Assembly: GCA_963663165.1 (NCBI GenBank)
Contig: OY760175.1
Location: 2,592,001-2,656,000, forward strand
Source: an uncultured Desulfospira sp.
GTDB taxonomy: Bacteria; Desulfobacterota; Desulfobacteria; Desulfobacterales; Desulfobacteraceae
DNA: 64,000 bases
Direction: 5' to 3'
The notes below the pieces were generated by a model that made no database searches, had not been told where the DNA came from, and saw nothing but the letters and a program-made list of their open reading frames with translations. This document shows, piece after piece, positions 24,936-39,856 of the stretch. Numbering within the stretch: the stretch's first letter is position 1; each line of letters starts with the position of its first letter. The position numbers were made by a program, and so were the translations under genes.

Positions 24936-26218
24936 CATCCCCGACACCGGAACCAGACCTTACCCACTGCACCCTGGCCGTCATCGGATCGGGAACCGCC
25001 GGTATGGCCGCCGCCATCTTTGCCGCCCAAAAAGGCCTTTCAACGGTCCTGGTGGGGCAACCGGCACAACTTTCTTTCTCCTCGGGCTGCCTGGATCTGT
25101 TTGCCTGCATCCCGGGAAAGCCCGCCCAGTGGTTTGACGATCCTTTTAAAGGGATTGCCGCGCTGATTAAACAGAACCCGGGCCATCCCTATGCCAAAGT
25201 TTCCAGAAAAGAGATTGAAACCGGTTTTAAACAATTTATCCAATTTATGGAAATGGCCGGGATCAGCTTTTCATGCACCCCGGATCAAAATCAGAAGATT
25301 ATTACCCCGGCCGGAACCTTAAAATCCACCCTTTGCGTCCCTGCATCCATGGCCGCCGGAGCCCGGGCACTGGCCCAAAAAGAGCGGATACTCATCGCTG
25401 ATATTCCAGGGCTTAAAGGATTTGGCGCCCTGCAGATGGCCGATACTTTAAAACTGACTCATCCGGCGGTCACCAGTGTTTCCATTGAATTTCCAGGCAG
25501 ACAGAACCAGGGCGACCTCATGTGCGAACGTTTAGGGTGGGACCTGGACACCCCGCAGGTGGTGGACCAGTTTATCGAAAGCCTTGTCCCCCATGTCTCA
25601 TCCTGCGACACTGTGGGCCTGCCCGCTATCCTGGGGGTTCACCGGTTTGAGGCGTTAAGGGAAAAAATTGAACAGGGTCTTGGCCGGGCCGTATTTGAAA
25701 TCCCCACCCTGTCCCCTTCCGTTACCGGAATGCGCACCTGGGCCGCCTTTCAGGATCAAATACGCAACACCCAATTCCGCCAATTCCAGGACCTGGTGAA
25801 AACCGTCACCATAGACAACAGCCAAGGATTTTCCTTTAAGGTTAAAAACGGGGACAAACTGACGGTCATCCGTTCCAAATACCTGATTCTGGCCACAGGC
25901 CGGTTTTTAGGCCGGGGGCTGACAGCGGACGCCTCAGGCCGGATCAAAGAGAGCCTTTTCAACCTGCCGGTATCACAGCCCCGGGACCGCTCCGGCTGGT
26001 TTGAAGCTGATTTTTTCAACCCGGGCGGTCATCCGGTAAACCGGGCCGGCATTGAAACCGACGAAAACTTCAGGCCCCTGGATCAGGACGGAAACTGTTT
26101 CCACCCCAACCTTTATGCTGCAGGTGCCATCCTGGCCCACCAGGACTGGAAACGGGAAAAATCCGGCTCCGGCATCTCCATTGCTTCAGCCTTTAAGGCG
26201 GTCTCCCGGATGGATTGA
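24932..26218 (+). CDS. glpB: Anaerobic glycerol-3-phosphate dehydrogenase subunit B
   Basis: VIGSGTAG, FSSGCLD, HPY, LPAILG, EIPTLSPSVTG, LATGRFLGRGL, SGSGISI; ATGA overlap with glpA. Confidence 0.9.
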   Translation: MTSPTPEPDLTHCTLAVIGSGTAGMAAAIFAAQKGLSTVLVGQPAQLSFSSGCLDLFACIPGKPAQWFDDPFKGIAALIKQNPGHPYAKVSRKEIETGFKQFIQFMEMAGISFSCTPDQNQKIITPAGTLKSTLCVPASMAAGARALAQKERILIADIPGLKGFGALQMADTLKLTHPAVTSVSIEFPGRQNQGDLMCERLGWDLDTPQVVDQFIESLVPHVSSCDTVGLPAILGVHRFEALREKIEQGLGRAVFEIPTLSPSVTGMRTWAAFQDQIRNTQFRQFQDLVKTVTIDNSQGFSFKVKNGDKLTVIRSKYLILATGRFLGRGLTADASGRIKESLFNLPVSQPRDRSGWFEADFFNPGGHPVNRAGIETDENFRPLDQDGNCFHPNLYAAGAILAHQDWKREKSGSGISIASAFKAVSRMD

Positions 26219-26603
26219 TTTTTAGATCTGCCTTCCCGGCGCATCCGGCCGCAATACACCTGCTATTGAATGCTGATTTGAAATTGACCTGAGCGAAAAA
26301 TGATCCCATGAGGCCCCAGTCAATTTTATTGGTCTATAAAATTGATTTTGGTTTTTTCGGGTCAGGCACAACATATTGGGGTTGAATGGTTTTCGAAAAA
26401 CCCCGGACTTATAGACTTATGTTGCGAGTGGTCATAACTCATTGATTTTTATGATAAATTCAAACACCCGCTGTGCAAATCAATATCGACTTTTAAATTC
26501 AATGAGTTACAGTGGATTATAAAATTTTTCATAATCACTGGCAACATAATTTTTTGTTTTACTACATACCGCTTTAAAGATAGCAAAAGGCTACCTCAAT
26601 GGA

Positions 26604-27623
26604 TCATAAACTGTCAAGCCAGGCAAGGATTTCAGCATTATTTTTCCAGTCGATCAGCTCATCAATCTTCTTGTCTTGATTCATTTTCGATTGCATATAT
26701 TCAATGAGCTTATCCTGGATTTCCCGTTTTTTTGACAAGTCCAGCTGCAAATAAGCCATTGTTGATTCAACGCTTTGATGGCCCAGGCGATTTTTGATAT
26801 CCGATACGGGGGCCCCTGAAGTCACCATATTAACCGCACAAGAATGTCTGAAGCAATGGGCCGGACTCAGACCTTTCAACCGTTTTTCCGGCAATGCTTT
26901 TGTCAGATATCTTCGGCAAATTTTGTTGATACCATGCCGGGTCATTCCCCGCCTCCGCTGATTAATGAACAGCCGGTGTGCAAATAATGGGATGGGGGCT
27001 ACTCTATGATTGGTGATATAGTCTGAGATCAGTGATGCGGTTTTGGACCACAGGTTGATCAACCTGTATCGGTTCCCCTTGCCCAGGACCGCAATGGTTT
27101 CGTTTTCAGGATCAAAATAATCAAATTCCAGTGTGGCAATCTCGCTGGCTCTGGCACCGGAGTCGTAAAGCAGATGGAGAATGGTAAAATCTCTCATCCC
27201 TTCCTTCTTTTTTAAATCGACGACACTGAAAATTTTCATTATTTCTTCTGGGTGTAAAAATCCCATCACCTTCTTTTGAGCCCTTTTCTGAGGGATGGTC
27301 AAAAGAGCTTCTGCGACTCGTTTTTTGTCCGGATGCATGAATCGGATCATCTTGGCCAGCGACTTGATCACGGCCAAGCGGTTGTTCCGGGTCTGGACGG
27401 TATTTTTTCGGTCTGTTTCCAAATGATTCAGGAAGCCCAGAACAGCGTCAGGTGTTAAATGGTCAATTTTCAAGGATTTGATTTTGATCGAATGATAATC
27501 CGCCAAAAAATGCAGAAACAAAGAAAAAGCCTGCTGGTAAGTTTTAATGCTTTGTTCGCTGGTCCCTTTTATATGGGGCAGGTATTCATAAAAATACTGA
27601 TGCAGGCAGGTGGATAATCTCAT
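26604..27623 (-). CDS. ritC: Tyrosine recombinase, RitC type
   Basis: GARASEI, GKGNRYR, HCFRHSCA, LGHQSVESTMAYL; 4-bp overlap with the upstream recombinase. Confidence 0.88.
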   Translation of the reverse strand: MRLSTCLHQYFYEYLPHIKGTSEQSIKTYQQAFSLFLHFLADYHSIKIKSLKIDHLTPDAVLGFLNHLETDRKNTVQTRNNRLAVIKSLAKMIRFMHPDKKRVAEALLTIPQKRAQKKVMGFLHPEEIMKIFSVVDLKKKEGMRDFTILHLLYDSGARASEIATLEFDYFDPENETIAVLGKGNRYRLINLWSKTASLISDYITNHRVAPIPLFAHRLFINQRRRGMTRHGINKICRRYLTKALPEKRLKGLSPAHCFRHSCAVNMVTSGAPVSDIKNRLGHQSVESTMAYLQLDLSKKREIQDKLIEYMQSKMNQDKKIDELIDWKNNAEILAWLDSL

Positions 27624-28594
27624 ACATCCTCACTTCTCAACATCGAAAAATCAAGCATTTGGCGGCGATGCTCTGCATCCAGAACTCTCAGATATTTGGT
27701 CGTATACTTGTATTCGCTGTGTCCCATGTAAGCGGCCAGCACCGGCAACGCATTTTGGGCAGACTTGCCCTGTTGTTTAATTCGTTTCAGTGTATTTACA
27801 GCAAAGGAATGACGAAGTGAGTGCCGTGTCGGGTTGCTGAAATTTGTAGCACCAATAATTTTTTTGTGCTGATCAAGGTTAATGGCCGAAATCGCTTTTT
27901 TAAATTTTCGATCCATGAAATGGCGGGGTAACTTTCCGCCATCTCCTTTGATCAATAATAAAGGATGCACATCGGCAATAAGTAAAAGCCGTCGCACGTT
28001 CAAAAAATTGTCGATTTCACAAGAAACGGCCTTGGGTATTGGGATCAGTCGGTCTTTTTTAAATTTTGTTTTCTCAATATAGATTGTCCTTTCTTCAGAC
28101 CTGTAGTTCTTTTGCAGCAAATTGAACGTCTCCGATATTCTCAAGCCGCACCGGGCCATCAGCAGAAAAGAGATATAACCGCTAAAATCGGTGAGGTAAT
28201 ATTTTTTTGTTTTTCGCATCTGTTTTATGACAGTTTTCAATAAAAGATCCGTTTCTTTCGGAGAAAAAATAAAAGGGATAATCTGATTTTCCGGCAGCTC
28301 AGCAATCTCCTGTATGGGATTTGTCAAAATCAGGTCTCTGCGGATCAGATATTTGAAAAACATTTGAAACGTTCGAAAAAATGTATTGATGGAACGGTTT
28401 TCACAATTGAGGTCTGAACGGAGTCGGATGAAAAACAACGGATCAAATGATGTCCAGGTCACATCCCTTTGGGCAACATACCGATCCAGCAACCGAAGGC
28501 TGCACAGCAGCATTTTATCTGAATATCCCAATTGAAGACGGTATTCGATAAAATCCTCTATATATTCGCTAAGAAAGCTTTTAAAGCGTTTCAC
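27620..28594 (-). CDS. ritB: Tyrosine recombinase, RitB type
   Basis: CGLRISE, KTKFKKDRLIP, HSLRHSFAV, LPVLAAYMGH..TTKYL. Confidence 0.88.
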   Translation of the reverse strand: MKRFKSFLSEYIEDFIEYRLQLGYSDKMLLCSLRLLDRYVAQRDVTWTSFDPLFFIRLRSDLNCENRSINTFFRTFQMFFKYLIRRDLILTNPIQEIAELPENQIIPFIFSPKETDLLLKTVIKQMRKTKKYYLTDFSGYISFLLMARCGLRISETFNLLQKNYRSEERTIYIEKTKFKKDRLIPIPKAVSCEIDNFLNVRRLLLIADVHPLLLIKGDGGKLPRHFMDRKFKKAISAINLDQHKKIIGATNFSNPTRHSLRHSFAVNTLKRIKQQGKSAQNALPVLAAYMGHSEYKYTTKYLRVLDAEHRRQMLDFSMLRSEDV

Positions 28595-29540
28595 CGAGGA
28601 TAACCTCCCGCATCAGGTTGATATGGATGCTCAGATATTTTTGCGTTGCTCCGATGCTTTTATGGCCCATCATTTCTTTTATCTCATAAATGGAAGCACC
28701 GGACTCCAGCAAATTCTGGGCGTAAGAATGCCTCAGCCAATATGTGTTTGACTCAAGATTGCTATCAGCCATAAATTCTCTTATATGACGGGGGATGTCG
28801 CTCCTGCCAACCGGTTTATAAGGCGGCACTAACTGTAAAAATAAGGTTCGAGATTGGGTTTCTGGTCTCCCGCCGATAATATAAGCGGTGATGGCCTTGA
28901 TCACATTGTCCGGCACAGGAAGATGAGCAGGGCTGTAATTTTTTCTCGAACGAATAAAAATCTCTTTTTGCCTGAAAGAGATGTCATCCAGGGTAAGTGA
29001 GCTGATTTCTCCGGGCCTCAATCCCAAAAAATATGCCAGGTGCATAGCCGCATAAATACGGAGATCTTTTGCTGTTGACAAATTCATGAGCTTAAACATT
29101 TTTTGCACTTCATGGGGGCGCAAGAATTTCGGTGGTTTTGACCGAGCAAACTCAGGAGGGCTCACCACCAGCACAGAGATGTCTTTTTTGATATACCCGC
29201 CTCGGTAGAGGTGCTTGAGAAACTGCCGAAGATGTGACCGGTTAGATCTGGCTGCCCCGGCAGAATAATTGGTGTTGTAACGGGCTAAAAATTGATCAAC
29301 CTGATGAATGGATATTTCATTTAAAAGAATGCCTGACGTTTGAAGAAAAAAATGAAAACTCATCAGTATTTGCCTCATTGCGCCGATATTGTTTTCGTTA
29401 CGAAGCTGGTGTTTGTAATAATTCAGATACCCATGAAAAATTTCCGGCAACGGAAGGCCGAGTGGCGGCATTATTTCTGCCGGCACTCGACATCGACGAT
29501 AAGACTGTATATTGAGTTCTGTTCCCAAATCAGACGTCAT
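28581..29540 (-). CDS. ritA: Tyrosine recombinase, RitA type
   Basis: PPKFLRP, LGLRPGEI, YWLRHSYA, MGHKSIGATQKYL. Confidence 0.85.
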   Translation of the reverse strand: MTSDLGTELNIQSYRRCRVPAEIMPPLGLPLPEIFHGYLNYYKHQLRNENNIGAMRQILMSFHFFLQTSGILLNEISIHQVDQFLARYNTNYSAGAARSNRSHLRQFLKHLYRGGYIKKDISVLVVSPPEFARSKPPKFLRPHEVQKMFKLMNLSTAKDLRIYAAMHLAYFLGLRPGEISSLTLDDISFRQKEIFIRSRKNYSPAHLPVPDNVIKAITAYIIGGRPETQSRTLFLQLVPPYKPVGRSDIPRHIREFMADSNLESNTYWLRHSYAQNLLESGASIYEIKEMMGHKSIGATQKYLSIHINLMREVILGETL

Positions 29541-29838
29541 GATCAGGTGCTCTTGTATTCAAAATAATCTGAAGATATTTGACACTGTCAACAAAACCAA
29601 TGTGCCGACAGGCCATTACCAGATCTATGGTATTAAAATTCTTTTCGCATCGAAAACACCTGCTCAGGTTCGTCTTAGGATTAACTGCAGTCTGAAATTC
29701 ATTGCACAAGGGACACAGAAAACGGAAAACCCCTTCACTTATTTTGGCTGGAATACCCAGTTCCGTTTCGATCAACACATGAATGGGTATTGAATTTCGT
29801 AATCTATAAAGTTCCTTTGAAGAAAATCGTTTGCCCAT
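29530..29838 (-). CDS. CHC2-type (primase-like) zinc-finger protein
   Basis: FRFLCPLCNE..TNLSRCFRCEKNFNTIDLVM..FVDSVKYL resembles the DnaG zinc-binding domain; overlaps both neighbours. Confidence 0.8.
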   Translation of the reverse strand: MGKRFSSKELYRLRNSIPIHVLIETELGIPAKISEGVFRFLCPLCNEFQTAVNPKTNLSRCFRCEKNFNTIDLVMACRHIGFVDSVKYLQIILNTRAPDHDV

Positions 29839-30343
29839 GCTGACACCTCTTCTTTTTGGTTAGTTCCTTCATAATATCTGGTGTCAATTTTACCGTCTCC
29901 TGGTCCGTGGCATCAATAATCTCTTGTAACGCATTTTTGTTAAGGAGGGTGTCAAACCCAATAAAGACAAGGGTCTTGGCCGATATTAAATCTTGTAACG
30001 GTATTTGAATTAAATCCATCGAAGATCCTTTACCAGCAATGGTTTTGGCAGTTTTTATCTCTTGTAACGTATTTTCAGTTAAGGATGGCTTTCCCGGAGG
30101 CTTTGTTCGCTTCCAGTAACCAGGATTGCTTTGGCGCCATTCCTGAACACGGACCACATTCTCAGGCCCTGAAAAATAATCCTGATTCTTTGGCTTATTC
30201 AGCCATTTTTGCTGGCTGTGTTTTTTACTGGCAATTTTGCATTCGGGTTCGTTACAAAATTTTTGCCGTTTCAAATGACGGGGATCTGGCTTGAATAAAT
30301 TTTGGCAGTTTTTACACCTGCGCTGTCGGATTTGTTTTTTCAT
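29804..30343 (-). CDS. Hypothetical basic Cys4 zinc-finger protein of the RIT-like element
   Basis: RRCKNC..QKFCNEPEC..NQDYF..RVQEWR..NPGYW; three 23-aa LQ(E/D) repeats; SD aaggagg. Confidence 0.75.
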   Translation of the reverse strand: MKKQIRQRRCKNCQNLFKPDPRHLKRQKFCNEPECKIASKKHSQQKWLNKPKNQDYFSGPENVVRVQEWRQSNPGYWKRTKPPGKPSLTENTLQEIKTAKTIAGKGSSMDLIQIPLQDLISAKTLVFIGFDTLLNKNALQEIIDATDQETVKLTPDIMKELTKKKRCQHGQTIFFKGTL

Positions 30344-30507
30344 AGACCTGATACCTCCTTAGATCTATGATCGGATGGATGGTGGCGGGGTAGTATTTTT
30401 TCAAAATATGGCGGGGTATAGCGGGGTCCAGCTGGGTCGGGCGGGGTAGAACACGCAACAAAAAAAACTCGCTACATAAATAGACAGATTGCACACTTAA
30501 AAAATCA

Positions 30508-31149
30508 CTAAAGCCTGTGTTCATTCCAAGTAGTACTGTCAATAGTGAAGCTTAGCAAACGATCAGATGTGCGCACTGTTACTTTATTTGAACTTATTTT
30601 TACATCCTCTAAGGATTCTCTAATTCGGAGACGAACTTCAGTAAAAGATGATGAATTTTCTGCAAAACCAAGTGCCCGGCTGGATGTGATAATCACAGCA
30701 ACATGTTTCCCTGTGCCCACAAAAAGTCTCTCATCATGAAGTGGAATTTGGGTTTCAATGAATCGGTTGGACGAGGCAACATAGCCGATAGCACGACCCT
30801 CAAATACCAGTAAAGCAATAATTGGAGACAAGGAGGTCATTGCTTCTTTAGATTCGTCTGGTCTCAAATGTAAATATTGCCAACCGCCTGAAATTGTAGA
30901 TATTACAAAAAAACGATTGTTGGTTAGAAAAGTACCTAAATGGCCTTTTGAATCACTCCATAGCACTTTTTCTTTTGCAGAAAGATCAAAAGATATTGTT
31001 TTTTTACCCTCTATAACCGCAACAATTTTAGTATTGGATTCGAAGATATCAATTAAATCTTCTATTTCTTCTTCAGCATTTGAATGCACTGTTAATACAA
31101 TAATAGAAAGGAGAATGAGAATTGCATGCTTTTTTTGAGATTTTAACAT
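30508..31149 (-). CDS. Secreted hypothetical protein with ~39-aa beta-strand repeats (propeller-like); cargo gene
   Basis: Signal peptide MLKSQKKHAILILLSIIVLTVHSNA; repeats LTNNRFFVIS / FEGRAIGY / ITSSRALGF / RTSDRLLSF; AT-rich. Confidence 0.7.
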   Translation of the reverse strand: MLKSQKKHAILILLSIIVLTVHSNAEEEIEDLIDIFESNTKIVAVIEGKKTISFDLSAKEKVLWSDSKGHLGTFLTNNRFFVISTISGGWQYLHLRPDESKEAMTSLSPIIALLVFEGRAIGYVASSNRFIETQIPLHDERLFVGTGKHVAVIITSSRALGFAENSSSFTEVRLRIRESLEDVKISSNKVTVRTSDRLLSFTIDSTTWNEHRL

Positions 31150-32265
31150 GGCGTTGCTCCAGGAATTAAAAAGAACGTAATGGTCACAGAAACGATTGCC
31201 CATATATCATTCTGAGTCGGACGATTTAATTTATAGGTATCATGACAAAAATTTGATCTCAAGAACTTATAACTAAACTTGGCATTCAACAAATTAGACA
31301 CCGGCAAATGAATATAGAGAAGATTCATGAGCTTTCATGGTATGGAACCGGACTATTTGAGGCCCAACGCCCCTCTCCAATAACAGATCAAGTACACATG
31401 GCCACGCTGCAGGCCTTTTCCCGAGCCTTTCCGAAAAAAGTCCCGCTGTTCTTCCAGGAATTTTGTATACTGTCGGTGTCCTGATCCTTCATCAGGATAG
31501 ACCATAACATTTTTAAAGGAGGGCAGCATCATGAAAATTTCACAGGCAATTAAAAATTTTCTGGCTTACCAAAAGCTCAACTCAAAAAAAACACCATCCA
31601 AAACTATCGATACTTTCTGGCAGTTTTCCAAAAGGAGTTCGGCAAGCGTGATGTCTCTGCGGTAACATCGGATGAAATCATGGCATTTCTGGTCAAAATC
31701 ACTGAAGGCCTGAAACCCTCAACCAAGAAACTCAAATATTCCCTTCTCAAAAGCCTCTTCAATTTTGTCAAAAATACTGCCGTGCCAAATCTTCTCAATC
31801 CATGTGACTCTGCTCTCCTATCAAAAACATTTCGAGTTTCCAAGTTGCCGCCATGGACAATCTTGGAACGAGATGCCGTTGATGAATTCATATTCAAAAC
31901 GGAGAGCCCCAGAAACCGGCTGATGCTTGAATTGATGGCAAGGGGTGGAATGAGGATCGGTGAAGTTCTGAAATTGAAGCCTCAGGATGTCCAGGATCGA
32001 AAACTTCATTTGCCCAATCCCAAGAGTGGCCGTACCTCCGAAGTCGTTTTTATTCCCCAAAAGGTGGCAGACCGGCTGCGTGATTATATTGCCGCTGAAA
32101 ATTTTCTGGATGATGAGCGTATTTTCCCTCTGGGGTAGGGTGCAATCCCATTTAGTGGCATGAACTGACATGTATCCAATTTTTCCGTTTTTCATGCTGC
32201 ATTGAATACTCTGCCCTCCCAAAAAAAGCTGGACTCCTGGCTCATGAAAGGTTATATAGATTTGC

Positions 32266-33138
32266 ATGAGCAGGACTTTAACCATTCAAGGACGTGAATT
32301 TTCAGAAGTTGATATACAAACGATACGCCATTTGATTAACGACAATCCCGCCTGGCACCGCACTCGTTTATCCAAAGAATTGTGTGCTCGCTGGGATTGG
32401 CGCACGGAAAAAGGTCTGCTCAAGGACATGGCCTGTCGAAGCATGCTGAGAAAACTTGAGCAAAAAGGGATGGTCACACTTCCCGTTGCCCGTCATAGCG
32501 GTAACCGTCAGCGGCGTATTCCCGATGTCCCCCATGATTGTAAGCCGATAGAAACCACTTTGCGTAAGATCCGCCCGATACAATTGATACCGGTATCGGG
32601 CCGTGGAGATATTGATGATTTATTCCATTGCCTTATGGATCGATATCATTACCTTGGGTGTAAAGGGTATGTCGGAGAACATATGAAGTATATGGCTTTT
32701 GATCGCAATTCTCGTCCGGTTGCCTGCCTGCTTTTTGGCTCAGCAGCATGGAAAACGGCCCCTCGTGACCGATTCATCGGTTGGGATAGGTCGGCTCGTC
32801 GCAGGAACCTGCATATGACGACCAACAATACCCGATTTTTGATTTTGCCATGGATTCGAATTCCCCATCTTGCCAGTCATATTCTGGGTTCATGTCTTAG
32901 GCGGCTGAGCCGGGACTGGACAGCTAAATATGGTCACGATATCTGTCTGGTAGAAACTTTCGTGGATCGATCACGCTTTGCCGGAACTTGCTACCAGGCG
33001 GCAAATTGGCAAAAAATTGGTCAAAGCAAAGGGCGAAGCCGTCAAGACAGGCACCACAGACTTCAGGTGCCGATAAAAGACATCTATGTATACCCGTTGA
33101 CTTCCAATTATAAAAAGCAGCTATGCACACAAACTTGA
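32266..33138 (+). CDS. DUF4338 (DruA-like) protein
   Basis: RTRLSKELCARWDWR..LKDMACR, YHYLG, PRDRFIGW, NNTRFLILPW..HLASHILG, ETFVDRSRFAGTCYQAANW..G.SKGRSRQD. Confidence 0.85.
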   Translation: MSRTLTIQGREFSEVDIQTIRHLINDNPAWHRTRLSKELCARWDWRTEKGLLKDMACRSMLRKLEQKGMVTLPVARHSGNRQRRIPDVPHDCKPIETTLRKIRPIQLIPVSGRGDIDDLFHCLMDRYHYLGCKGYVGEHMKYMAFDRNSRPVACLLFGSAAWKTAPRDRFIGWDRSARRRNLHMTTNNTRFLILPWIRIPHLASHILGSCLRRLSRDWTAKYGHDICLVETFVDRSRFAGTCYQAANWQKIGQSKGRSRQDRHHRLQVPIKDIYVYPLTSNYKKQLCTQT

Positions 33139-33195
33139 GGGTTTCAGTCATCGAAATGACAGGTAATTTTTCAACCTGCAATTCGAGGACTGATC

Positions 33196-34596
33196 ATGAA
33201 ACTTGCTTCCACTATAAGGGATATTCGAACCCTTCTAACAAAAGCCGTAGCTGATTTCCAAAACCATCAAAATGCTAATATCCTGTGTGAGCAGGTACGG
33301 AACGGCCTCTTCATTATTGTGGAAGCATTTCTGGTTCCCGTCATTGAAAAGGCACTGTCTGACCCGGATCTTTTATCTGAACTGAAAATTGGTGCCGGTA
33401 AAAAGGGACTGCGTTTCAACGGATACCGCCCCAGCAGCATTCGATTATTGACAGGAACTACCCTGAGCATCCGATCCCCTTACTTTTCAAAAGTTGTTTC
33501 CAAACAACGGCCAGGCCCTAAAACAAAAAAACGACAAAAGGGGACAGGCCGCCATTTTGGGCTTGATTACCTTGGTTTTATCGGCAGGTGTTCAACGCTG
33601 TTCGCTTCGTCGGTGGTCCATGCAGCATTGCTCTGCCCCTCTTTTGAAATTGCCCGAAGATCCCTGGAAAACCATGCAATCAACTTAAATGTCAAAACCA
33701 TACGCCGCATAACAATGAATCTTGCACAGGAAGCTATGCCCCTGCGTGGCCGGGTATCTTTTGGAGATACTGATCGCGTTGGTGGCAAAACGGTTCTGGT
33801 TTGTATCGACGGCGGTCGCCTTCGAGAACGGAGGCCAAAACGGGGACGTAAATCAAAAGGCCAAAAGCGGCAGGGATATCATACTGAATGGAAAGAACCC
33901 ATTCAGTTTGTCATACATATTGTCGATCCGGACGGCACAATATCCAAAAAACACTTGCCGGTTTATGATGCCACAATGGGCGGTATTGATGCCGCTTTTG
34001 ATATTCTTGAGATCTACTTGCGTGAATTAGATATTCCCAAAGCCAAGCGTGTTGTTTTCTGCTGTGACGGTGCACGTAGCTATTGGAAGCGAACAGGCCC
34101 GCTGGCCAAACGGCTTGAAATCGAATCCTATTATGAGGTAATCGACTACACCCATGCAAAACAGAATTTACATGAAATCGTGGACAAATTGCCAAAGAGA
34201 ATCCCTATAAAAGAAAGAAACCGGATAGCAGAATCTTGGAAGAACCTCCTTTGGGATGGCAGATTCAAAGACCTTAGAAAAGAAATTGTAAAACACATTA
34301 CGTACCCTAAAAGGCGCATAGAAGCACTATCCAAATTTAAAAGTTACTTCGTGAAAAATCGAAACAGAATGCAGTATCGCCAGTTCCGCAGCCTGAAAAT
34401 ACCTACTGGCAGCGGCTGTGTTGAAAGTGCAATACGTCGGGTTATAAATCTCAGAATGAAATCACCGGGTATATTCTGGAAACCGGAAACATCCGAATCA
34501 ATGTTGTTCTTAAGGAGTCAGCTCCTTTCCGGGAGGTGGAACATCTTGACTGACAATATCTTCATACAAATTCGGTCACTTTGCTTAGGCCACTAA
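33196..34596 (+). CDS. DDE transposase, ISKra4/ISLre2-like
   Basis: CIDGG..WKEP, CCDGARSYW, IDYTHA, MQY..IPTGSGCVESAIRRVINLRMK..GIFW; stop codon lies within the right TIR. Confidence 0.85.
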   Translation: MKLASTIRDIRTLLTKAVADFQNHQNANILCEQVRNGLFIIVEAFLVPVIEKALSDPDLLSELKIGAGKKGLRFNGYRPSSIRLLTGTTLSIRSPYFSKVVSKQRPGPKTKKRQKGTGRHFGLDYLGFIGRCSTLFASSVVHAALLCPSFEIARRSLENHAINLNVKTIRRITMNLAQEAMPLRGRVSFGDTDRVGGKTVLVCIDGGRLRERRPKRGRKSKGQKRQGYHTEWKEPIQFVIHIVDPDGTISKKHLPVYDATMGGIDAAFDILEIYLRELDIPKAKRVVFCCDGARSYWKRTGPLAKRLEIESYYEVIDYTHAKQNLHEIVDKLPKRIPIKERNRIAESWKNLLWDGRFKDLRKEIVKHITYPKRRIEALSKFKSYFVKNRNRMQYRQFRSLKIPTGSGCVESAIRRVINLRMKSPGIFWKPETSESMLFLRSQLLSGRWNILTDNIFIQIRSLCLGH

Positions 34597-34856
34597 ATGG
34601 GAATGCACCCTCTGGGGTATACCCGGGCCAGGGAGATCGTTAAAAGCGCCGGCAAAAAAATCGGAATTGATGTAAAGCCACATGATCTCAGACGGCATGC
34701 AGCCACTTATGCCAGCCGATCAGGCGTTCCTATTGAAATCGTTTCAAAAATCATCCTTCGTCACTCAAACCTGTCCACCACCCAGAGGTATCTTGGAAAA
34801 ATCAGCGACACCGAGGCCATGTATTGGATTGAGAATATTTACCGGTAAAAATCGAA

Positions 34857-34881
34857 GGGGATTGGGATGATCCTAATCCCC
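34857..34881 (+). other. Stem-loop immediately downstream of the integrase
   Basis: ggggattggga-tga-tcctaatcccc. Confidence 0.55.
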
Positions 34882-35097
34882 AACAATAGAAACGCCAGTG
34901 CTCATGGGGTTTTTCGGAGCAATAGAGTTTTTTTATAGACATATTGTGAGGGAATCAATCCCTGAAATACCCCCTAAATTGTTAGCAATTCAAATGATTT
35001 CTTTGATAACTCTCAACCCTAAAGACTCATTGGATTGATACTTATTTCTGAGATTACAATATCGCAACAATTCCTTTTAGTCACAAATTAGACTAAA

Positions 35098-37458
35098 CTA
35101 CGACTTTATTTTCTTTGCCATCCTTTTAAGATATTTCTGCTTTCTTTTACCGAACAGCTCTATCTGTTTTTCCATCTCCTTTAATCGATCTTCTTTTTCT
35201 TGGTTTTCGGCATACATATCTTGATAATTATCAATTAAGGCCTTAACTGATGGAATGAACTTATATCCTTTATTTTCAAGTTCTTTACTCGTTTCGATAA
35301 AAGATTCCATCAGCTCATTCTTGCTCCTTAAATCATCCTCGGCATTTTCTTCGTATTTACCGTTTGACTCAAATAATTTGCTTGTGAAGACATCGGCTAA
35401 TTCATATTTTAACCTTGTGAGATTATAGCCTCTTAGATCTACCCCAATTCCAACTAATTTTTCAATAGATTCCCAATTCTGAGTAACTACAAAACTTAAG
35501 AAAGGATTCTCAAATAGATTTTTAATTTCATCGTAAGATAAATCAAAAGGAGCAACTCTCTCAATTAGCGAGATAATATTTAAAGGCCTGATATAAAATG
35601 GTTCAAAAATCCCCAGCTCTTTAGCACATTTTAGTACTCTTGATGAAGTAGTTAAAACGTAATATTTATACTTAAGTGTGTCAATTGCCTTTCTATTTTC
35701 TTTACGATTTTCGTGCAAATAATTCATATACATTCTGGAATCAATTTTTGCTATCTCACGATTCTCTTCTTCATCTCTGTATGATCCCTTGAATGTGTTT
35801 TTTGTTAATTCAAAAACTCTTTCTTGTAGCTGTTCAAAGTAATAATATTCGTTTTCTTCAAGTTCAAGATCAGCTAATTCTATAAAGATAATTTTTGAAC
35901 ATATTTCATTTTTTATTAAATCAATAAAATATTCAATTGGTTGTTTCGGGTGATAATAATTTTGAATATAATTATCGAAATTCGGACTAATTTTATTATT
36001 TAAAATACCGTTAAAATAGCCTTTTGCAAATATGTTCCCAACTTGCTCTTCAAGAATAATAGGGTCTATCACATCGGATTTCGTTCTGAAATAATTATAA
36101 TTTCGGTAAGAATATTTGGCGTGTTGTGAGACTTCATGTAAAACTTGGATTGGAATAATGATTTTCGCATTGTATTTGATTAACTCTGATATGATCCGTC
36201 TATAAACGCTACATTCAGTGTTCTCCGAAACTATGAGATTTAAAACGAAATCAGTATCAATTATGAATTCTTTTTCCGCAAACTGTTTACCTTGGAAATT
36301 ATTCTGCTTAGGGTCTAATTTCAGAACTTGAGCTCCAACATACGTCTTGCACCATGAAATCAAAGTAGCCTCTTGGTCTATCGTCGGACTCTTTAAAATT
36401 TCACCTACACAATATATCAGCACTTCAGATTCCTCTTCAGGAAGCCCTTGTTTTAACTTGGATATCAAACTCATAGAAGTGTCATAGTCATTGTGTATAT
36501 TTTCAATATCAAAACTTTTTTCTAAAGCATACAGTTTAAAATAATCCGTTATTCCTTCTTCTGAGTTCTTAACAATTTGTCTTTTAGACGAGTTAGAAAG
36601 ATCTCTTTCGAGAATTAATTGAATTTTAAAAATAATATCATCAAACAATGCTGATTTTTCAGACAATGTTTTTGCACTCGCTTCTTCAATGGCCATGCTC
36701 TTTTTGTCTGAAATATAAAAACCTCCATTTTTTTCTATAAGATTTCCTAACTTGGCCTGTCTTGTTAAAGAGCATTCAATTTTTCTTCGGTTAATCGCTG
36801 CTTGAATTTGATTTTTAATTTCATCTTGTAGAATCGGAGCATCACAACCAGGATTCGAATAAACAAAATATAAAATTAGCGTATCAAAGATCTTTTTATT
36901 CGAATCAAAAAAGGCGTCACTCTGAGTTAGTGCAATAGAAATTTTCGCCAATGATTTTTCATAGTTTTGATTTTTGTCATCAGTTGATTCTTGCTTGCTG
37001 AACAAATCTGAGTTTAATTGTTTCCGTATATCTGGAAAGTATCTATTAAGAAAAGATGGATTAGCCCCTAATCGAGATTTAAAAACCTGTCTTTCATAAA
37101 TTTCCAATTTGGGTCTTATGCCATGTTTTTTTCTGAAATTTGTTTTTACCTCTTCCTTGTTATTCACTCTTTCAAGGGTAACAATTATCAATTCATCGCA
37201 TTTTTTTCCCGTTTCCTTAATCCTGTTATATGTTGACGAGATTTTAGATTTTACATTTTGTTGCAATGAATACTGGAAAATTATATTATATTCAGATTGC
37301 TCGTAGTATTTTACTAATCCAGCATCTACACCACCATCTTTGATTCCTCCTGCTGGTATTAAATTATTATACCCTTCTTGGATCATTATTTCGTTTGCCA
37401 AGTCCTCAAATTTATTAAAATCGGTGTAATTGGTTAGAATAATTTCGATAATATCCAT
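35098..37458 (-). CDS. AT-rich 786-aa hypothetical protein: N-terminal restriction-endonuclease-like domain, central helical/wHTH-like region, PIN-like domain, C-terminal coiled coil; candidate defence protein
   Basis: FEDLANEI..GGIKDGGVDAG..IIFQYSLQ; FIIDTDFVL..IPIQVLHEV..KIDSRMY..YVLTTS; much more AT-rich than flanking genes. Confidence 0.65.
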   Translation of the reverse strand: MDIIEIILTNYTDFNKFEDLANEIMIQEGYNNLIPAGGIKDGGVDAGLVKYYEQSEYNIIFQYSLQQNVKSKISSTYNRIKETGKKCDELIIVTLERVNNKEEVKTNFRKKHGIRPKLEIYERQVFKSRLGANPSFLNRYFPDIRKQLNSDLFSKQESTDDKNQNYEKSLAKISIALTQSDAFFDSNKKIFDTLILYFVYSNPGCDAPILQDEIKNQIQAAINRRKIECSLTRQAKLGNLIEKNGGFYISDKKSMAIEEASAKTLSEKSALFDDIIFKIQLILERDLSNSSKRQIVKNSEEGITDYFKLYALEKSFDIENIHNDYDTSMSLISKLKQGLPEEESEVLIYCVGEILKSPTIDQEATLISWCKTYVGAQVLKLDPKQNNFQGKQFAEKEFIIDTDFVLNLIVSENTECSVYRRIISELIKYNAKIIIPIQVLHEVSQHAKYSYRNYNYFRTKSDVIDPIILEEQVGNIFAKGYFNGILNNKISPNFDNYIQNYYHPKQPIEYFIDLIKNEICSKIIFIELADLELEENEYYYFEQLQERVFELTKNTFKGSYRDEEENREIAKIDSRMYMNYLHENRKENRKAIDTLKYKYYVLTTSSRVLKCAKELGIFEPFYIRPLNIISLIERVAPFDLSYDEIKNLFENPFLSFVVTQNWESIEKLVGIGVDLRGYNLTRLKYELADVFTSKLFESNGKYEENAEDDLRSKNELMESFIETSKELENKGYKFIPSVKALIDNYQDMYAENQEKEDRLKEMEKQIELFGKRKQKYLKRMAKKIKS

Positions 37459-38176
37459 TTGAGATGGTTCCCTTATGAATTAGGTTATAGAAAAATCCCT
37501 TTGAATTTATGATCCACAGTACTTTAGCTTCGTCCATTTTTCAAATACTAATTCTGATGACTTTCCAAATGATCGTATTTTGAGATGATAGATACGATGG
37601 GGATGGGTAATGCCAATACCAGCAATCATGGTATAAGTCCCCTGATCCCCAATTTGAATTCAGATACCATATCTGGTAGTCCGATTCAAATCTCCAGATT
37701 ACATTTTATATATTAAACGCCTGCCTCTGCAGGAAGCACTCAAAAATCAGACAAAATACCGGTAAAGCCTATCCCTGAATCGCATGTGAGTATGTCGGGG
37801 TCACATGTTTACATACTCAAGCCCCCCTGTCATGATAAAGCAGTGTTCCATGACGGAAGGACTCAAAGCGGATGGCTGACAAAAGAGCATGGGAGATACT
37901 TGACAGTGCGCCTGCCCTGACGTTATACAATTCCATCAGATGAATAAATTATCAATATATGATAAGTATGGCAGCCAAAGACAGGCTAATTGTTGAAATT
38001 GACATTTCAAAGCCCTTTTCAAATGTAATTTCTCAGTTATCAGACATAATCAAAGACAACGGATAACATGCGCTTTCACAGTCCGGCCCATGTACCCGGC
38101 GGCAGTTTAAAAAACCAAAGGCTTTCCGGCATTGTGAGTGATAAACCCTCAATGAAAAGCGGTAAGCCCTTAAGAG

Positions 38177-39340
38177 ATGCTTATGAAAGACAAATATGCC
38201 ATTGTGGGAATTGGAATGACGGAACAGGGGGTTGTTCCGGACAGGACAACCCTGAGTTTTCATCTTGAGGCCTGTGCCAATGCCATAAAGGATGCCGGCG
38301 TCACCAAAGAGGATATCGACGGTCTTATCTGTTATCGCCAGTTTCAGCCGGCATCGAATGAAGGACCGCTGATGCCTTATTTGCTGGCCCAGCATCTGGG
38401 AATAACCCCGAACTATATGGCCATGGATGCCAACTGCTCCAGGAGTCATCTTTGGAATGCCATCGGCGCGCTTGAAGCCGGCCTTTGCAAATACGTGCTG
38501 ATCTCCTACGGCCACAACGCCTACTCCAGCGACAGCATGCGCCGGTCACTCATAGACCGGGGCGCTGATGATGCGGTCTTTGGCCATTTTGGGGCCGCAG
38601 CAGGTTATGCCATGGCGGCACAAAGGGGGATGCACACCTTTCACACCGGGCCTGAAACCTGGAAACAGATTGCCGTGGGACAGAGGAAATGGGCCAATCT
38701 TAATCCATCGGCCATGATGCATAAAAAAACCATGAGCTTTGATGATTATTACAATGCCAGGTTTGTGGTTGAACCCTTCCGTCTTTTTGACAATTGCCTC
38801 ATGTCAGATGGCGGGCGGGCCATCCTTGTCACTTCGGCGAGGCGGGCCAGGGATTTGAAACACCCCCCGGTACTCATCATGGGAATGGGCCAGCACAACC
38901 TTTCCTGGGACGTTCATCAGGCCACCCACCTGGCCGGCCCCACCGGGGCCAAAAAGGCCGGGGAACAGGCGTTTAAGACAGCCGGTATCACATTAGACGA
39001 CATTGATGCCTGTGAGATTTACGACTGTTTTACCTACACGGTTGAGATCACGTTGCAGGATTATGGTTTTTTCAGGCCGGGCGAGGGGCAAGACTGGTTT
39101 AAAGACGGGACCATTGAGCCTGGCGGCCGCATGCCGGTGAACACCTCGGGTGGACAGCTTTCCGAAGCCTATTACATGGGACTTACGCCAATCTGCGAGG
39201 CCGTAATGCAACTGATGGGGCGCTGCGGGGAACGACAACTGGGCCCAGGGACCCGCACAAAGTCACCGGAAATTATCCTGTGCAGTGACAATGGCGGGAT
39301 TCTCCAGACCCATGCATGCATTATTCTGAGGAAAGAATAG
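38177..39340 (+). CDS. Thiolase-superfamily protein (SCP-x/Ltp2-like)
   Basis: AIVGIG, DNCLMSDGG, CEIYDCFTY, NTSGGQLSEAY; start could be 38183. Confidence 0.88.
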   Translation: MLMKDKYAIVGIGMTEQGVVPDRTTLSFHLEACANAIKDAGVTKEDIDGLICYRQFQPASNEGPLMPYLLAQHLGITPNYMAMDANCSRSHLWNAIGALEAGLCKYVLISYGHNAYSSDSMRRSLIDRGADDAVFGHFGAAAGYAMAAQRGMHTFHTGPETWKQIAVGQRKWANLNPSAMMHKKTMSFDDYYNARFVVEPFRLFDNCLMSDGGRAILVTSARRARDLKHPPVLIMGMGQHNLSWDVHQATHLAGPTGAKKAGEQAFKTAGITLDDIDACEIYDCFTYTVEITLQDYGFFRPGEGQDWFKDGTIEPGGRMPVNTSGGQLSEAYYMGLTPICEAVMQLMGRCGERQLGPGTRTKSPEIILCSDNGGILQTHACIILRKE

Positions 39341-39754
39341 ATGAACGATTATAAAAAGCCCCTTCCAAAGGTAAACGGCGACACCAGAGAATTCTGGAAT
39401 GCCTGCTGGCAGCACCAGCTGAAATTTCAGAAGTGTTCAAATTGCGGCCATATCCGTTGGCCCGCATCTATCTTATGTCCCCAATGCCACAGTGCTGAAA
39501 CCCAGTGGATCGTGTCCAAAGGATGCGGGCAGGTTTATACATTTGTGGTCTACCATGTGGCCTATCTGCCGGAATTCAAGGCTGACCTTCCATATGTGGT
39601 GGCCAGTGTCGAACTCGATGAAGGGCCCCGCATGCTCACCAATATTGTGGACTGCTCTCCGGATCAGGTTTTCTGCGGAATGCCGGTAAAGGTGAAATGG
39701 GACGACATTACCGAAGAATTCAGCCTGCCCAAATTCAAACCGCAGAAAATTTAA
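39341..39754 (+). CDS. Zn-ribbon/OB-fold (DUF35) protein
   Basis: FW..QKCSNCG..P..LCPQC, GQVYTF, PYVVASVELDEGPRM. Confidence 0.9.
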   Translation: MNDYKKPLPKVNGDTREFWNACWQHQLKFQKCSNCGHIRWPASILCPQCHSAETQWIVSKGCGQVYTFVVYHVAYLPEFKADLPYVVASVELDEGPRMLTNIVDCSPDQVFCGMPVKVKWDDITEEFSLPKFKPQKI

Positions 39755-39856
39755 GAAAAGACATATCTGAAGATATCTGAATTCAAATTTCGACCCCGGT
39801 CAGGAAAATCAAGGATCAGTTTATACCATTTTTAACGCAACGGCAGGGCGTGTACA

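Follow-up and report, generated by a model that had tools for sequence, protein, structure and literature searches.

Gene blocks in sulfate-reducing bacteria are probably swapped by a small tyrosine recombinase read through a frameshift

A 64,000 nucleotide stretch of contig OY760175.1 from an uncultured Desulfospira sp. (the window) contains an island at positions 26320–37726, with a GC content of 0.40, in which two cargo genes alternate with a gene for a small tyrosine recombinase, the integrase (Table 1). Short sites of two types separate these genes, site A with the core ATAGACA and site B with the core ATACCAT, in the order A1>cargo 1<B1-int-A2>cargo 2<B2. A matrix scan of the whole window recovers these four sites and a single further match. 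Two mobile elements have entered the island, a RIT element in the recombination-like site A1 and an insertion sequence (IS) in the integrase gene. The initial annotation of this DNA had recognized this nesting; it counted one cargo gene in the island, overlooking the second one as well as the ATACCAT sites at 31337 and 37628. Gene blocks of this kind are probably swapped by the small recombinase, whose gene is read through a frameshift.

Table 1. Features of the island and of the elements inserted in it
Feature	Position	Strand	Details or basis
Outer site of A-end	26320..26344	+	TCAATTTTAT-TGGTCTA-TAAAATTG; holds inverted GTCTATAA; retained at orthologous locus with other content
A-end, about 95 bp, dispersed repeat member, closes in core A	26320..26416	+	nhmmer census in the window's genome
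Left half of site A1 (ATAGAC), interrupted by RIT	26411..26416	+	
RIT element, 4,063 bp	26417..30479	-	ends TTATGTTGCGAG / CTCGCTACATAA
Third tyrosine recombinase, RitC position, 339 aa	26604..27623	-	Pfam PF00589, PF02899
Second tyrosine recombinase, RitB position, 324 aa	27620..28594	-	Pfam PF00589
First tyrosine recombinase, RitA position, 319 aa	28581..29540	-	Pfam PF00589
RIT passenger, CHC2 zinc-finger protein, 102 aa	29530..29838	-	Pfam PF01807
RIT passenger, 179 aa, no family	29804..30343	-	carries three 69-bp repeats
Site A1, right half: core ATAGACA and cargo-side arm GATTG	30480..30491	+	
Cargo 1, 213-aa hydrophobic-N-terminus protein, no family match	30508..31149	-	
Site B1, core ATACCAT, left boundary of integrase unit	31337..31343	-	homology breakpoints; position weight matrix scan
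Integrase frame-0 open reading frame, 44 codons then stop	31531..31665	+	the core-binding domain begins with the first 20 codons
A8 slippery run, TC-A8-CAC	31584..31591	+	
Integrase body, 5' part	31593..32137	+	catalytic R and K motifs ARGGMRIGE, PKSG
ISKra4-like IS, 2,473 bp	32138..34610	+	9-bp target repeat 32129-32137 / 34611-34619
IS open reading frames	DruA-like 32266-33138; transposase 33196-34596	+	
Integrase body, 3' part	34620..34848	+	motifs HDLRRH, ILRH, TQRY
Site A2, core ATAGACA, right boundary of integrase unit	34935..34941	+	identity of 99-100% homologues stops at its last base
Cargo 2, 786-aa low-GC protein	35098..37458	-	no Pfam or NCBIfam match; in 3/301 genomes
Site B2, core ATACCAT	37628..37634	-	in matrix scan
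B-end, about 100 bp, partner of A-end	37628..37726	-	outer site core TAATATA at 37709-37715

The limits of the integrase unit are set by homology. Close homologues share DNA with the window only from about 31330, with the B core at 31337, to 34941. On the right, all eight close homologues with a listed site end their match at ATAGACA and then diverge, two of them being 99–100% identical to that point; on the left, homologue pairs diverge straight past ATACCAT. The unit from B1 to A2 measures 1,123 bp without the IS and holds one gene. The initial annotation had instead drawn a 2,058 bp unit and expected homologous integrases to lie between conserved copies of both its end motifs. The sum is right for 26332–34940 minus the inserts (26326–34946 gives 2,070 bp), but this stretch is not the element, whose breakpoints fall at 31337 and 34941, and a BLAST search near the integrase finds the 85 bp left end beside none of 82 oriented homologue loci. 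Its motif TTATAGAC at 34933 does mark a real end of the integrase unit; no end lies at 34946, and 26326 is not linked to the integrase. As this 8-mer alone is common, with 130 occurrences in the genome or 1.2 per 64 kb, the evidence for the sites rests on the homology breakpoints and not on the motif.

The bases next to ATAGAC had been taken for 6 bp coupling sequences. In the clade of the window those past it are not free: A occupies the seventh position in 21 of 23 A sites, and the second base past the core hardly varies. Across the 44 A and B sites collected, the 7-mers are invariant, T stands at -2 and A at +2, and the arms are weak. Because the set was selected by core, core conservation within it is partly circular; the breakpoints and the RIT cores are independent of it. 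Integrases of different clades adjoin different cores (ATAGACA, ATAGCAG or ATAGCCG).

The ends of the island belong to a dispersed family with about 20 matches in the window's own genome by the nhmmer census; the A-end occurs in 11/112 genomes of the taxonomic family. A-ends close in ATAGACA and B-ends in ATACCAT. On its inner side each end has a CACAA.AT.T.G.GG motif, on its outer side a TATAAAAT site. In most copies of the A-end the core of this outer site is TGTTCTA, versus TGGTCTA in the window. An inverted copy of the end motif, GTCTATAA, does begin at 26332 and is preceded by TTATTG, as the annotation had it. Its description of the 85 bp end as palindromic is too strong, since the symmetry consists of an 8 bp terminal and one short inner repeat (32/85 ungapped matches). 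Folded as DNA, this end reaches -9.3 kcal/mol against a shuffled mean of -5.3, and 12 of 300 mononucleotide shuffles fold as low. The 70 bases to its left (26249–26319) recur beside other A-ends (G000 5648965, G001 and G727), so that the left boundary may extend to 26249. No Rfam match is found over 26000–38300.

The order and strand of the sites recur in other genomes. First, across 11 regions around close homologues, none longer than 19.5 kb (two repeat earlier loci, excluded from training), distal sites point in the predicted direction in 16 of 19 cases (p 0.002), with A on the plus strand 7 versus 1, B on the minus strand 9 versus 2, and 7 downstream minus-strand B sites against 0.5 expected. 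Second, G721 has the full A-B-int-A-B order, with flanking cargo that we take to be a dicarboxylate-transporter-like and an RHS-like gene, and in G727 a cargo 1 homologue (72–75%) adjoins a homologous integrase in the same position. The far end of this homologue has no A site; a B site follows 8 kb downstream. Third, 12 A-ends were picked in other genomes by BLAST alone, and 10 of them face an inward B site 1–7 kb off; nine of these partners are full B-ends, and for the other two A-ends the contig stops within 3.5 kb. A>cargo<B blocks that lack the integrase and vary in cargo do occur elsewhere. In the window's own genome facing ends surround a SIR2-kinase gene, an AbiE pair and other genes, and G731 has an A-B-A-B series with a 76 bp spacer where the integrase would be. 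Near-empty blocks also occur (L156:2110–2360, which is G000 5773128–5773346, and L138:9630–9870), with both outer sites and inner palindromic GGGACTT repeats. At G000 6006360–6012466 an A>cargo<B block with two defence-like genes lies between two truncated integrase copies, and toxin-antitoxin-like genes are inserted behind B. In G780 a block of at least 11.8 kb is duplicated at 99.98% identity (L230 and L231), with an integrase between two B sites.

Seven loci of the window's genome were set against those of five relatives for cargo replacement, four of the loci being informative. At locus 1090k G001 keeps both outer sites around 4.76 kb of other genes versus 1.1 kb, and at 2889k homology to G001 breaks at one A core and one B core. 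The pattern expected of single-module replacement between conserved sites is present at two of the four informative orthologous loci and absent at the other two; loci 3838k and 3867k are not syntenic, and 3967k has the same cargo. One A site (L153:2240–2265) is shorter than its G001 orthologue by the six bases ATAGAC, as if the core had been removed. At the island itself, an empty site after glpB had been anticipated in relatives. Same-genus G001 has no clean empty site: it lacks all of 26222–39856 and has another repeat array there. In two genomes further removed, the alignment is confined to the glp genes. The thiolase-like and OB-fold genes adjoining the island (37730–39850) are also absent at the G001 locus, which suggests a larger or separate indel around it.

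As to the two cargo genes, cargo 2 has a weak N-terminal match to a restriction-endonuclease-type defence model (PADLOC PDLC02416, E 0.0018). Cargo 1 homologues are present in 8/300 other genomes, all of other families, where the strict pattern finds no A or B site within 1.5 kb; the wider regions around them were scanned for RIT ends only.

The integrase gene is itself unusual. Its ATG at 31531 is preceded by GGAGG, and its body lies in the -1 frame behind an A8 run, accessible solely via a -1 shift or one extra A. Removal of the IS had been expected to restore the gene; translation from this ATG still stops after 44 codons. The body is 52% identical to an in-frame 278-residue homologue, and in-frame homologues match Pfam N-terminal SAM-like models from residue 6–17. 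A survey with the frameshifted query yielded 85 homologue loci (79 + 8 – 2 duplicates), of which five lack the 5' end and five have a broken or lost start. In 67 of the 75 scorable loci the frame is shifted at a homopolymer in codons 9–27, and the eight in-frame loci have no run longer than six A. Among the shifted loci 49 need +1 at the A run and 13 need -1, while five, in two lineages, have moved to a T run (codon 9 in three loci, codon 27 in two). A sample of the phylum drawn with an in-frame query finds the integrase in 26/401 genomes (29 loci, three repeating the first sample); here 15/22 scorable loci are shifted, and the deepest clade is in frame. In-frame proteins are numerous in the protein database (3,888 matches). 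In a tree of 62 integrase bodies the -1 genes are nested in the +1 group and the in-frame genes are scattered.

Shifted genes are under purifying selection. The ratio of nonsynonymous to synonymous substitution rates (dN/dS) is 0.04–0.21 in 17 of 18 close pairs, one pair being misaligned by an insertion (included in the pooled body value) and one skipped for length, and for the 17 codons ahead of the run the pooled value is 0.18. Shifts at a homopolymer in both directions, together with these ratios, point to programmed slippage of the integrase gene. In IS630 and other transposase genes, +1 and -1 members occur at poly-A sites in one family, and PMC3711429 takes the mixed direction as the mark of transcriptional realignment. 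The integrase resembles these genes in its conserved homopolymer at the frame break, in both directions of shift and in purifying selection on both sides of the break; unlike them it is a tyrosine recombinase, with the shift in the first 9–27 codons and no useful short product. The main text and two of the three supplements of that paper contain no mention of an integrase or recombinase. No frameshifted tyrosine recombinase is described in the literature searched; the recoding paper of Sharma et al. 2011 lay outside that scope, and an earlier listing is possible. A programmed frameshift would explain why these integrase genes look like pseudogenes.

Some alleles weigh against slippage at expression alone. 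In G660 an in-frame A8 allele with an intact body adjoins an A9 allele; in two sequencing runs a form with one A fewer (A7) at 31584 equals the window's strain in depth; and a stop interrupts the run in two loci. Together they indicate that DNA-level slippage occurs too. In the last two loci (L190 and L198) a TAA stop lies within the former A run and the body is intact, which may reflect a stop-stimulated +1 shift or fresh pseudogenes. The frameshift taken by itself may be DNA-level phase variation, with the system turned on by rare alleles that are in frame, and not recoding in each transcript. A7, A8, A9 and A10 alleles do all occur, and the neighbouring A8 and A9 alleles of G660 and the shorter run at 31584 would fit. 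We nevertheless regard this as rather unlikely: the direction of shift is set by clade and not random, some runs are just A6–A7, and near-identical copies have moved while out of frame. In the clade of the window and its sister, A8 is found in 20 loci, A7 in four and A10 in one, and the in-frame A9 in 0/25. No strong hairpin follows the run: 70 nt fold to -8.1 kcal/mol, a value without shuffle control. A G+C hairpin at 34857–34881, directly past the integrase stop, is present in nearly all homologues and is probably a terminator. An intact 62% paralogue with the same A8 lies elsewhere in the genome, and its clade has no clear link to A or B sites. The integrase has no match in 72,556 plasmids at E 1e-30 and none in viral contigs.

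The RIT element had been delimited correctly. Removing 26417–30479 and one ATAGAC leaves the empty site TTATAGACAGATTG, which matches 34933–34946 at 13 of 14 positions. Four copies of the element at 99.98% identity or more are present in the genome, each with ATAGAC on both sides. Its recombinase genes overlap by 14 and 4 bp, and its terminal repeats match at 11 of the 12 end bases before the ends diverge, versus a repeat of 34 bp in the archetype. A second inverted copy of the terminal arm (GCAACATAA) closes the first 133 bp (26417–26549), which make up a small unit within the end. The three 69 bp repeats in the 179-residue passenger gene span 29908–30075. The genome contains three RIT families, with cores ATAGAC (4/4 copies), ATACCA (3/4, one variant) and TTGGAG. 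The third of these (8 copies) inserts in a near-empty block type with CTCCAA- and TGTATA-type cores. One ATAGAC copy sits in a coding region, so that a core with partial arms can suffice as a target. At 28 loci of other genomes 22 RIT ends were found: eight have ATACCA and three ATAGAC, making 11/22 with an A- or B-type core, two have TTGGAG, and five have CTTGCA, CTGGCA, CTGGCT or TTGCAA, similar to the motif (T/A)(G/T)GCAAG found at the left end in the +1 clade. RIT elements would carry the matching 6 bp core between their own TTATGT arms and use the module sites as landing places; the predicted donor junction is a 12 bp arm, the 6 bp core and a 12 bp arm. ATACCA cores also occur at G000 1252986, at the start of another tyrosine recombinase gene, and at 1806888, upstream of a two-recombinase pair. 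That pair (G000 1807186–1809034) has no clear RIT-like ends, the ATACCA lying 300 bp upstream.

The junctions proposed for the IS also stand: 32138–34610 is bounded by 22 bp terminal inverted repeats and by the 9 bp repeat TCTGGGGTA on both sides. A 9 bp repeat accompanies six of the eight genomic copies checked, and the remaining two, at G000 5391126 and 5409894, carry each other's flanks, a sign of rearrangement between them. The transposase matches NF033572 (ISKra4) best, at E 2e-30, under the curated cut-off, and the first gene (32266–33138) matches Druantia DruA (PF14236, E 3.5e-36).

The best reading of the locus is a cassette system akin to dif modules, with two cores, a recoded recombinase of its own and RIT elements as site-specific parasites. 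We favor, with moderate confidence, a chain of modules joined at two asymmetric tyrosine-recombinase site types, with a slippery integrase and RIT elements that land on the sites. Cargo modules are A>genes<B and the integrase module is B-int-A, so that the two types alternate. In tyrosine-recombinase systems like cores recombine. The single 278-residue recombinase, which we infer to act on the A and B sites, would join A only with A and B only with B, so that the integrase module would be excised with one neighbouring cargo, as a circle of 1,973 bp (A1xA2) or 3,809 bp (B1xB2) without inserts. Of the two excision routes suggested initially, that through the direct pair at 26411 and 34935 is plausible, while inverted outer ends are unsupported, as the 85 bp end is not linked to the integrase. 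Such a circle would enter a distant block at one core and leave by the other, swapping the cargo. Full protein would come only from slipped transcripts or shifted ribosomes, and a gene out of frame at a homopolymer run would keep the enzyme scarce. More tentatively, the whole may be a self-contained cassette exchange, in which a recoding-throttled recombinase circle with one cargo gene swaps into integrase-free docking blocks across the chromosome, with two incompatible cores and an outer pair, clade-specific cores, and RIT families that each match one core. In the window the IS insertion has left the integrase dead, and A1 is split by the RIT.

Several observations weigh against this chain of modules. 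No recombination or circle was seen. Four runs, examined as contigs, contain no A1xA2, B1xB2 or RIT-free joint, which weighs neither for nor against, as contigs drop rare forms; candidate IS-free joints in the four contig sets came from diverged paralogues and were rejected. The arms of the A and B sites are weakly conserved, so that the 7 bp register is only a best fit. Loci 107k and 5649k break away from the sites. Around 12 loci of the paralogue clade and 77 loci of other clades, scanned with the A/B matrix in place of cores of their own, there is no strand bias, and genome content shows no enrichment of ends with integrase or RIT. The integrase is found in 7/10 other A-end genomes, but within the best-sampled genus the figures are 5/7 versus 15/22 overall, and G005, G714 and G731 have ends and no match to the integrase query. 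All genome counts represent kin and are not independent. Finally, two integrase-only copies of 1,045 bp in G678, which belongs to another clade, are 99.6% identical with unrelated flanks and diverge after ATAG, within the supposed core, which keeps alive a transposition model with coupling sequences.

Under that model, which we consider unlikely, the stretch of about 1.12 kb from B1 to A2, the integrase unit, is a transposon akin to an IS and moves by itself, as Tn916, Tn554 or SEs do; the motifs are binding arms with heterologous coupling bases, A>cargo<B blocks are non-autonomous composites, and alternation is a by-product of end preference. The G678 pair, which has no target repeat, is as expected if this were so, and so are an internally deleted B-A unit in G718 and tandem integrase copies in G660 and G620. 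The clade of the window, however, has seven invariant bases over all flanks, the bases past the core form an arm shared by A and B, and A is always paired with B on a fixed strand. Elements of the Tn554, SE and Tn916 types have two to four genes and a variable 6 bp footprint or coupling sequence (PMC10214605). They share with the integrase unit a tyrosine recombinase, the lack of target duplication and short terminal motifs; the unit differs in being one 278-residue gene, with no Xis, TnpB/C, Tfp or Srap, and in its invariant cores in the window clade.

It is more improbable still that the sites are served by another enzyme, either host XerC/XerD with accessory proteins or the RIT recombinases, with the integrase as a passenger module. 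Ends in genomes with no integrase match would be explained, RIT arms begin with TTATGT like a XerD arm, and the conserved inner motif CACAA.AT.T.G.GG could be an accessory-protein site. Yet 0/44 sites reach 8/11 against either arm of the candidate dif and none has ATAA-core-TTAT, a close RIT is present in only 2/10 other A-end genomes, and the core next to the integrase is not the same in every integrase clade. The candidate dif is predicted at G000 744264 on the minus strand, near the GC-skew maximum at 755,625; xerD is located at 683937 and, at 698589, there is a xerC-like gene.

The minimal 2,058 bp element first proposed (26332–34940, one cargo gene, excision through inverted outer ends) is very improbable: both TTATAGAC motifs exist, the A1xA2 direct pair is real and G727 has a cargo 1 homologue beside a homologous integrase, but that homologue lacks an A site at its far end, the 85 bp end is absent by BLAST beside homologous integrases and pairs with B-ends in integrase-free blocks, its partner here is 37628–37726, and the breakpoints at 31337 and 37628 contradict the model.

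Among known systems, the island resembles the dif (pdif) modules of Acinetobacter. As described in PMC13141974, their asymmetric sites alternate, two module types must alternate, like spacers recombine, and single modules are replaced via integration at one site and resolution at the other; the sites consist of XerC and XerD arms around varied 6 bp spacers, on Rep_3 plasmids, and are acted on by the host Xer. Sites and module types of the island alternate in orientation like C and D modules. The island differs in having two fixed 7 bp cores and no Xer arms (0/44), in being chromosomal, and in its ends of about 95 bp with a second outer site and a dedicated recombinase that rides as a module. 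RIT elements have three adjacent overlapping tyrosine recombinase genes, typically overlapping by 4–8 bp, short terminal inverted repeats and identical copies in one genome, according to PMC3414803, and Table 1 of PMC10214605 gives their target specificity and movement as not tested. The element in the window is alike in its three PF00589 genes and four near-identical copies; it is unlike in that each RIT family here has on both sides a fixed 6 bp core identical to one of the module-site cores, and in that this copy carries two passenger genes. Integrons likewise combine one tyrosine recombinase with adjoining exchangeable accessory genes, but the integrase (tested on the intact paralogue) scores 48.9 bits against TIGR02249, for which the cut-off is 265, and the island ends face each other in pairs, with a weak fold, instead of one attC per cassette. 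No account of an A/B module family was found in the literature searched.

If this reading is true, the island would represent a chromosomal parallel to dif modules, independent of Xer, by which defence and surface genes move in sulfate reducers. For RIT elements, donor and target sites would be predicted exactly, and a 278-residue enzyme would offer a natural tool for two-site cassette exchange. A family of site-specific recombinases would also join the short list of genes read via a programmed frameshift.

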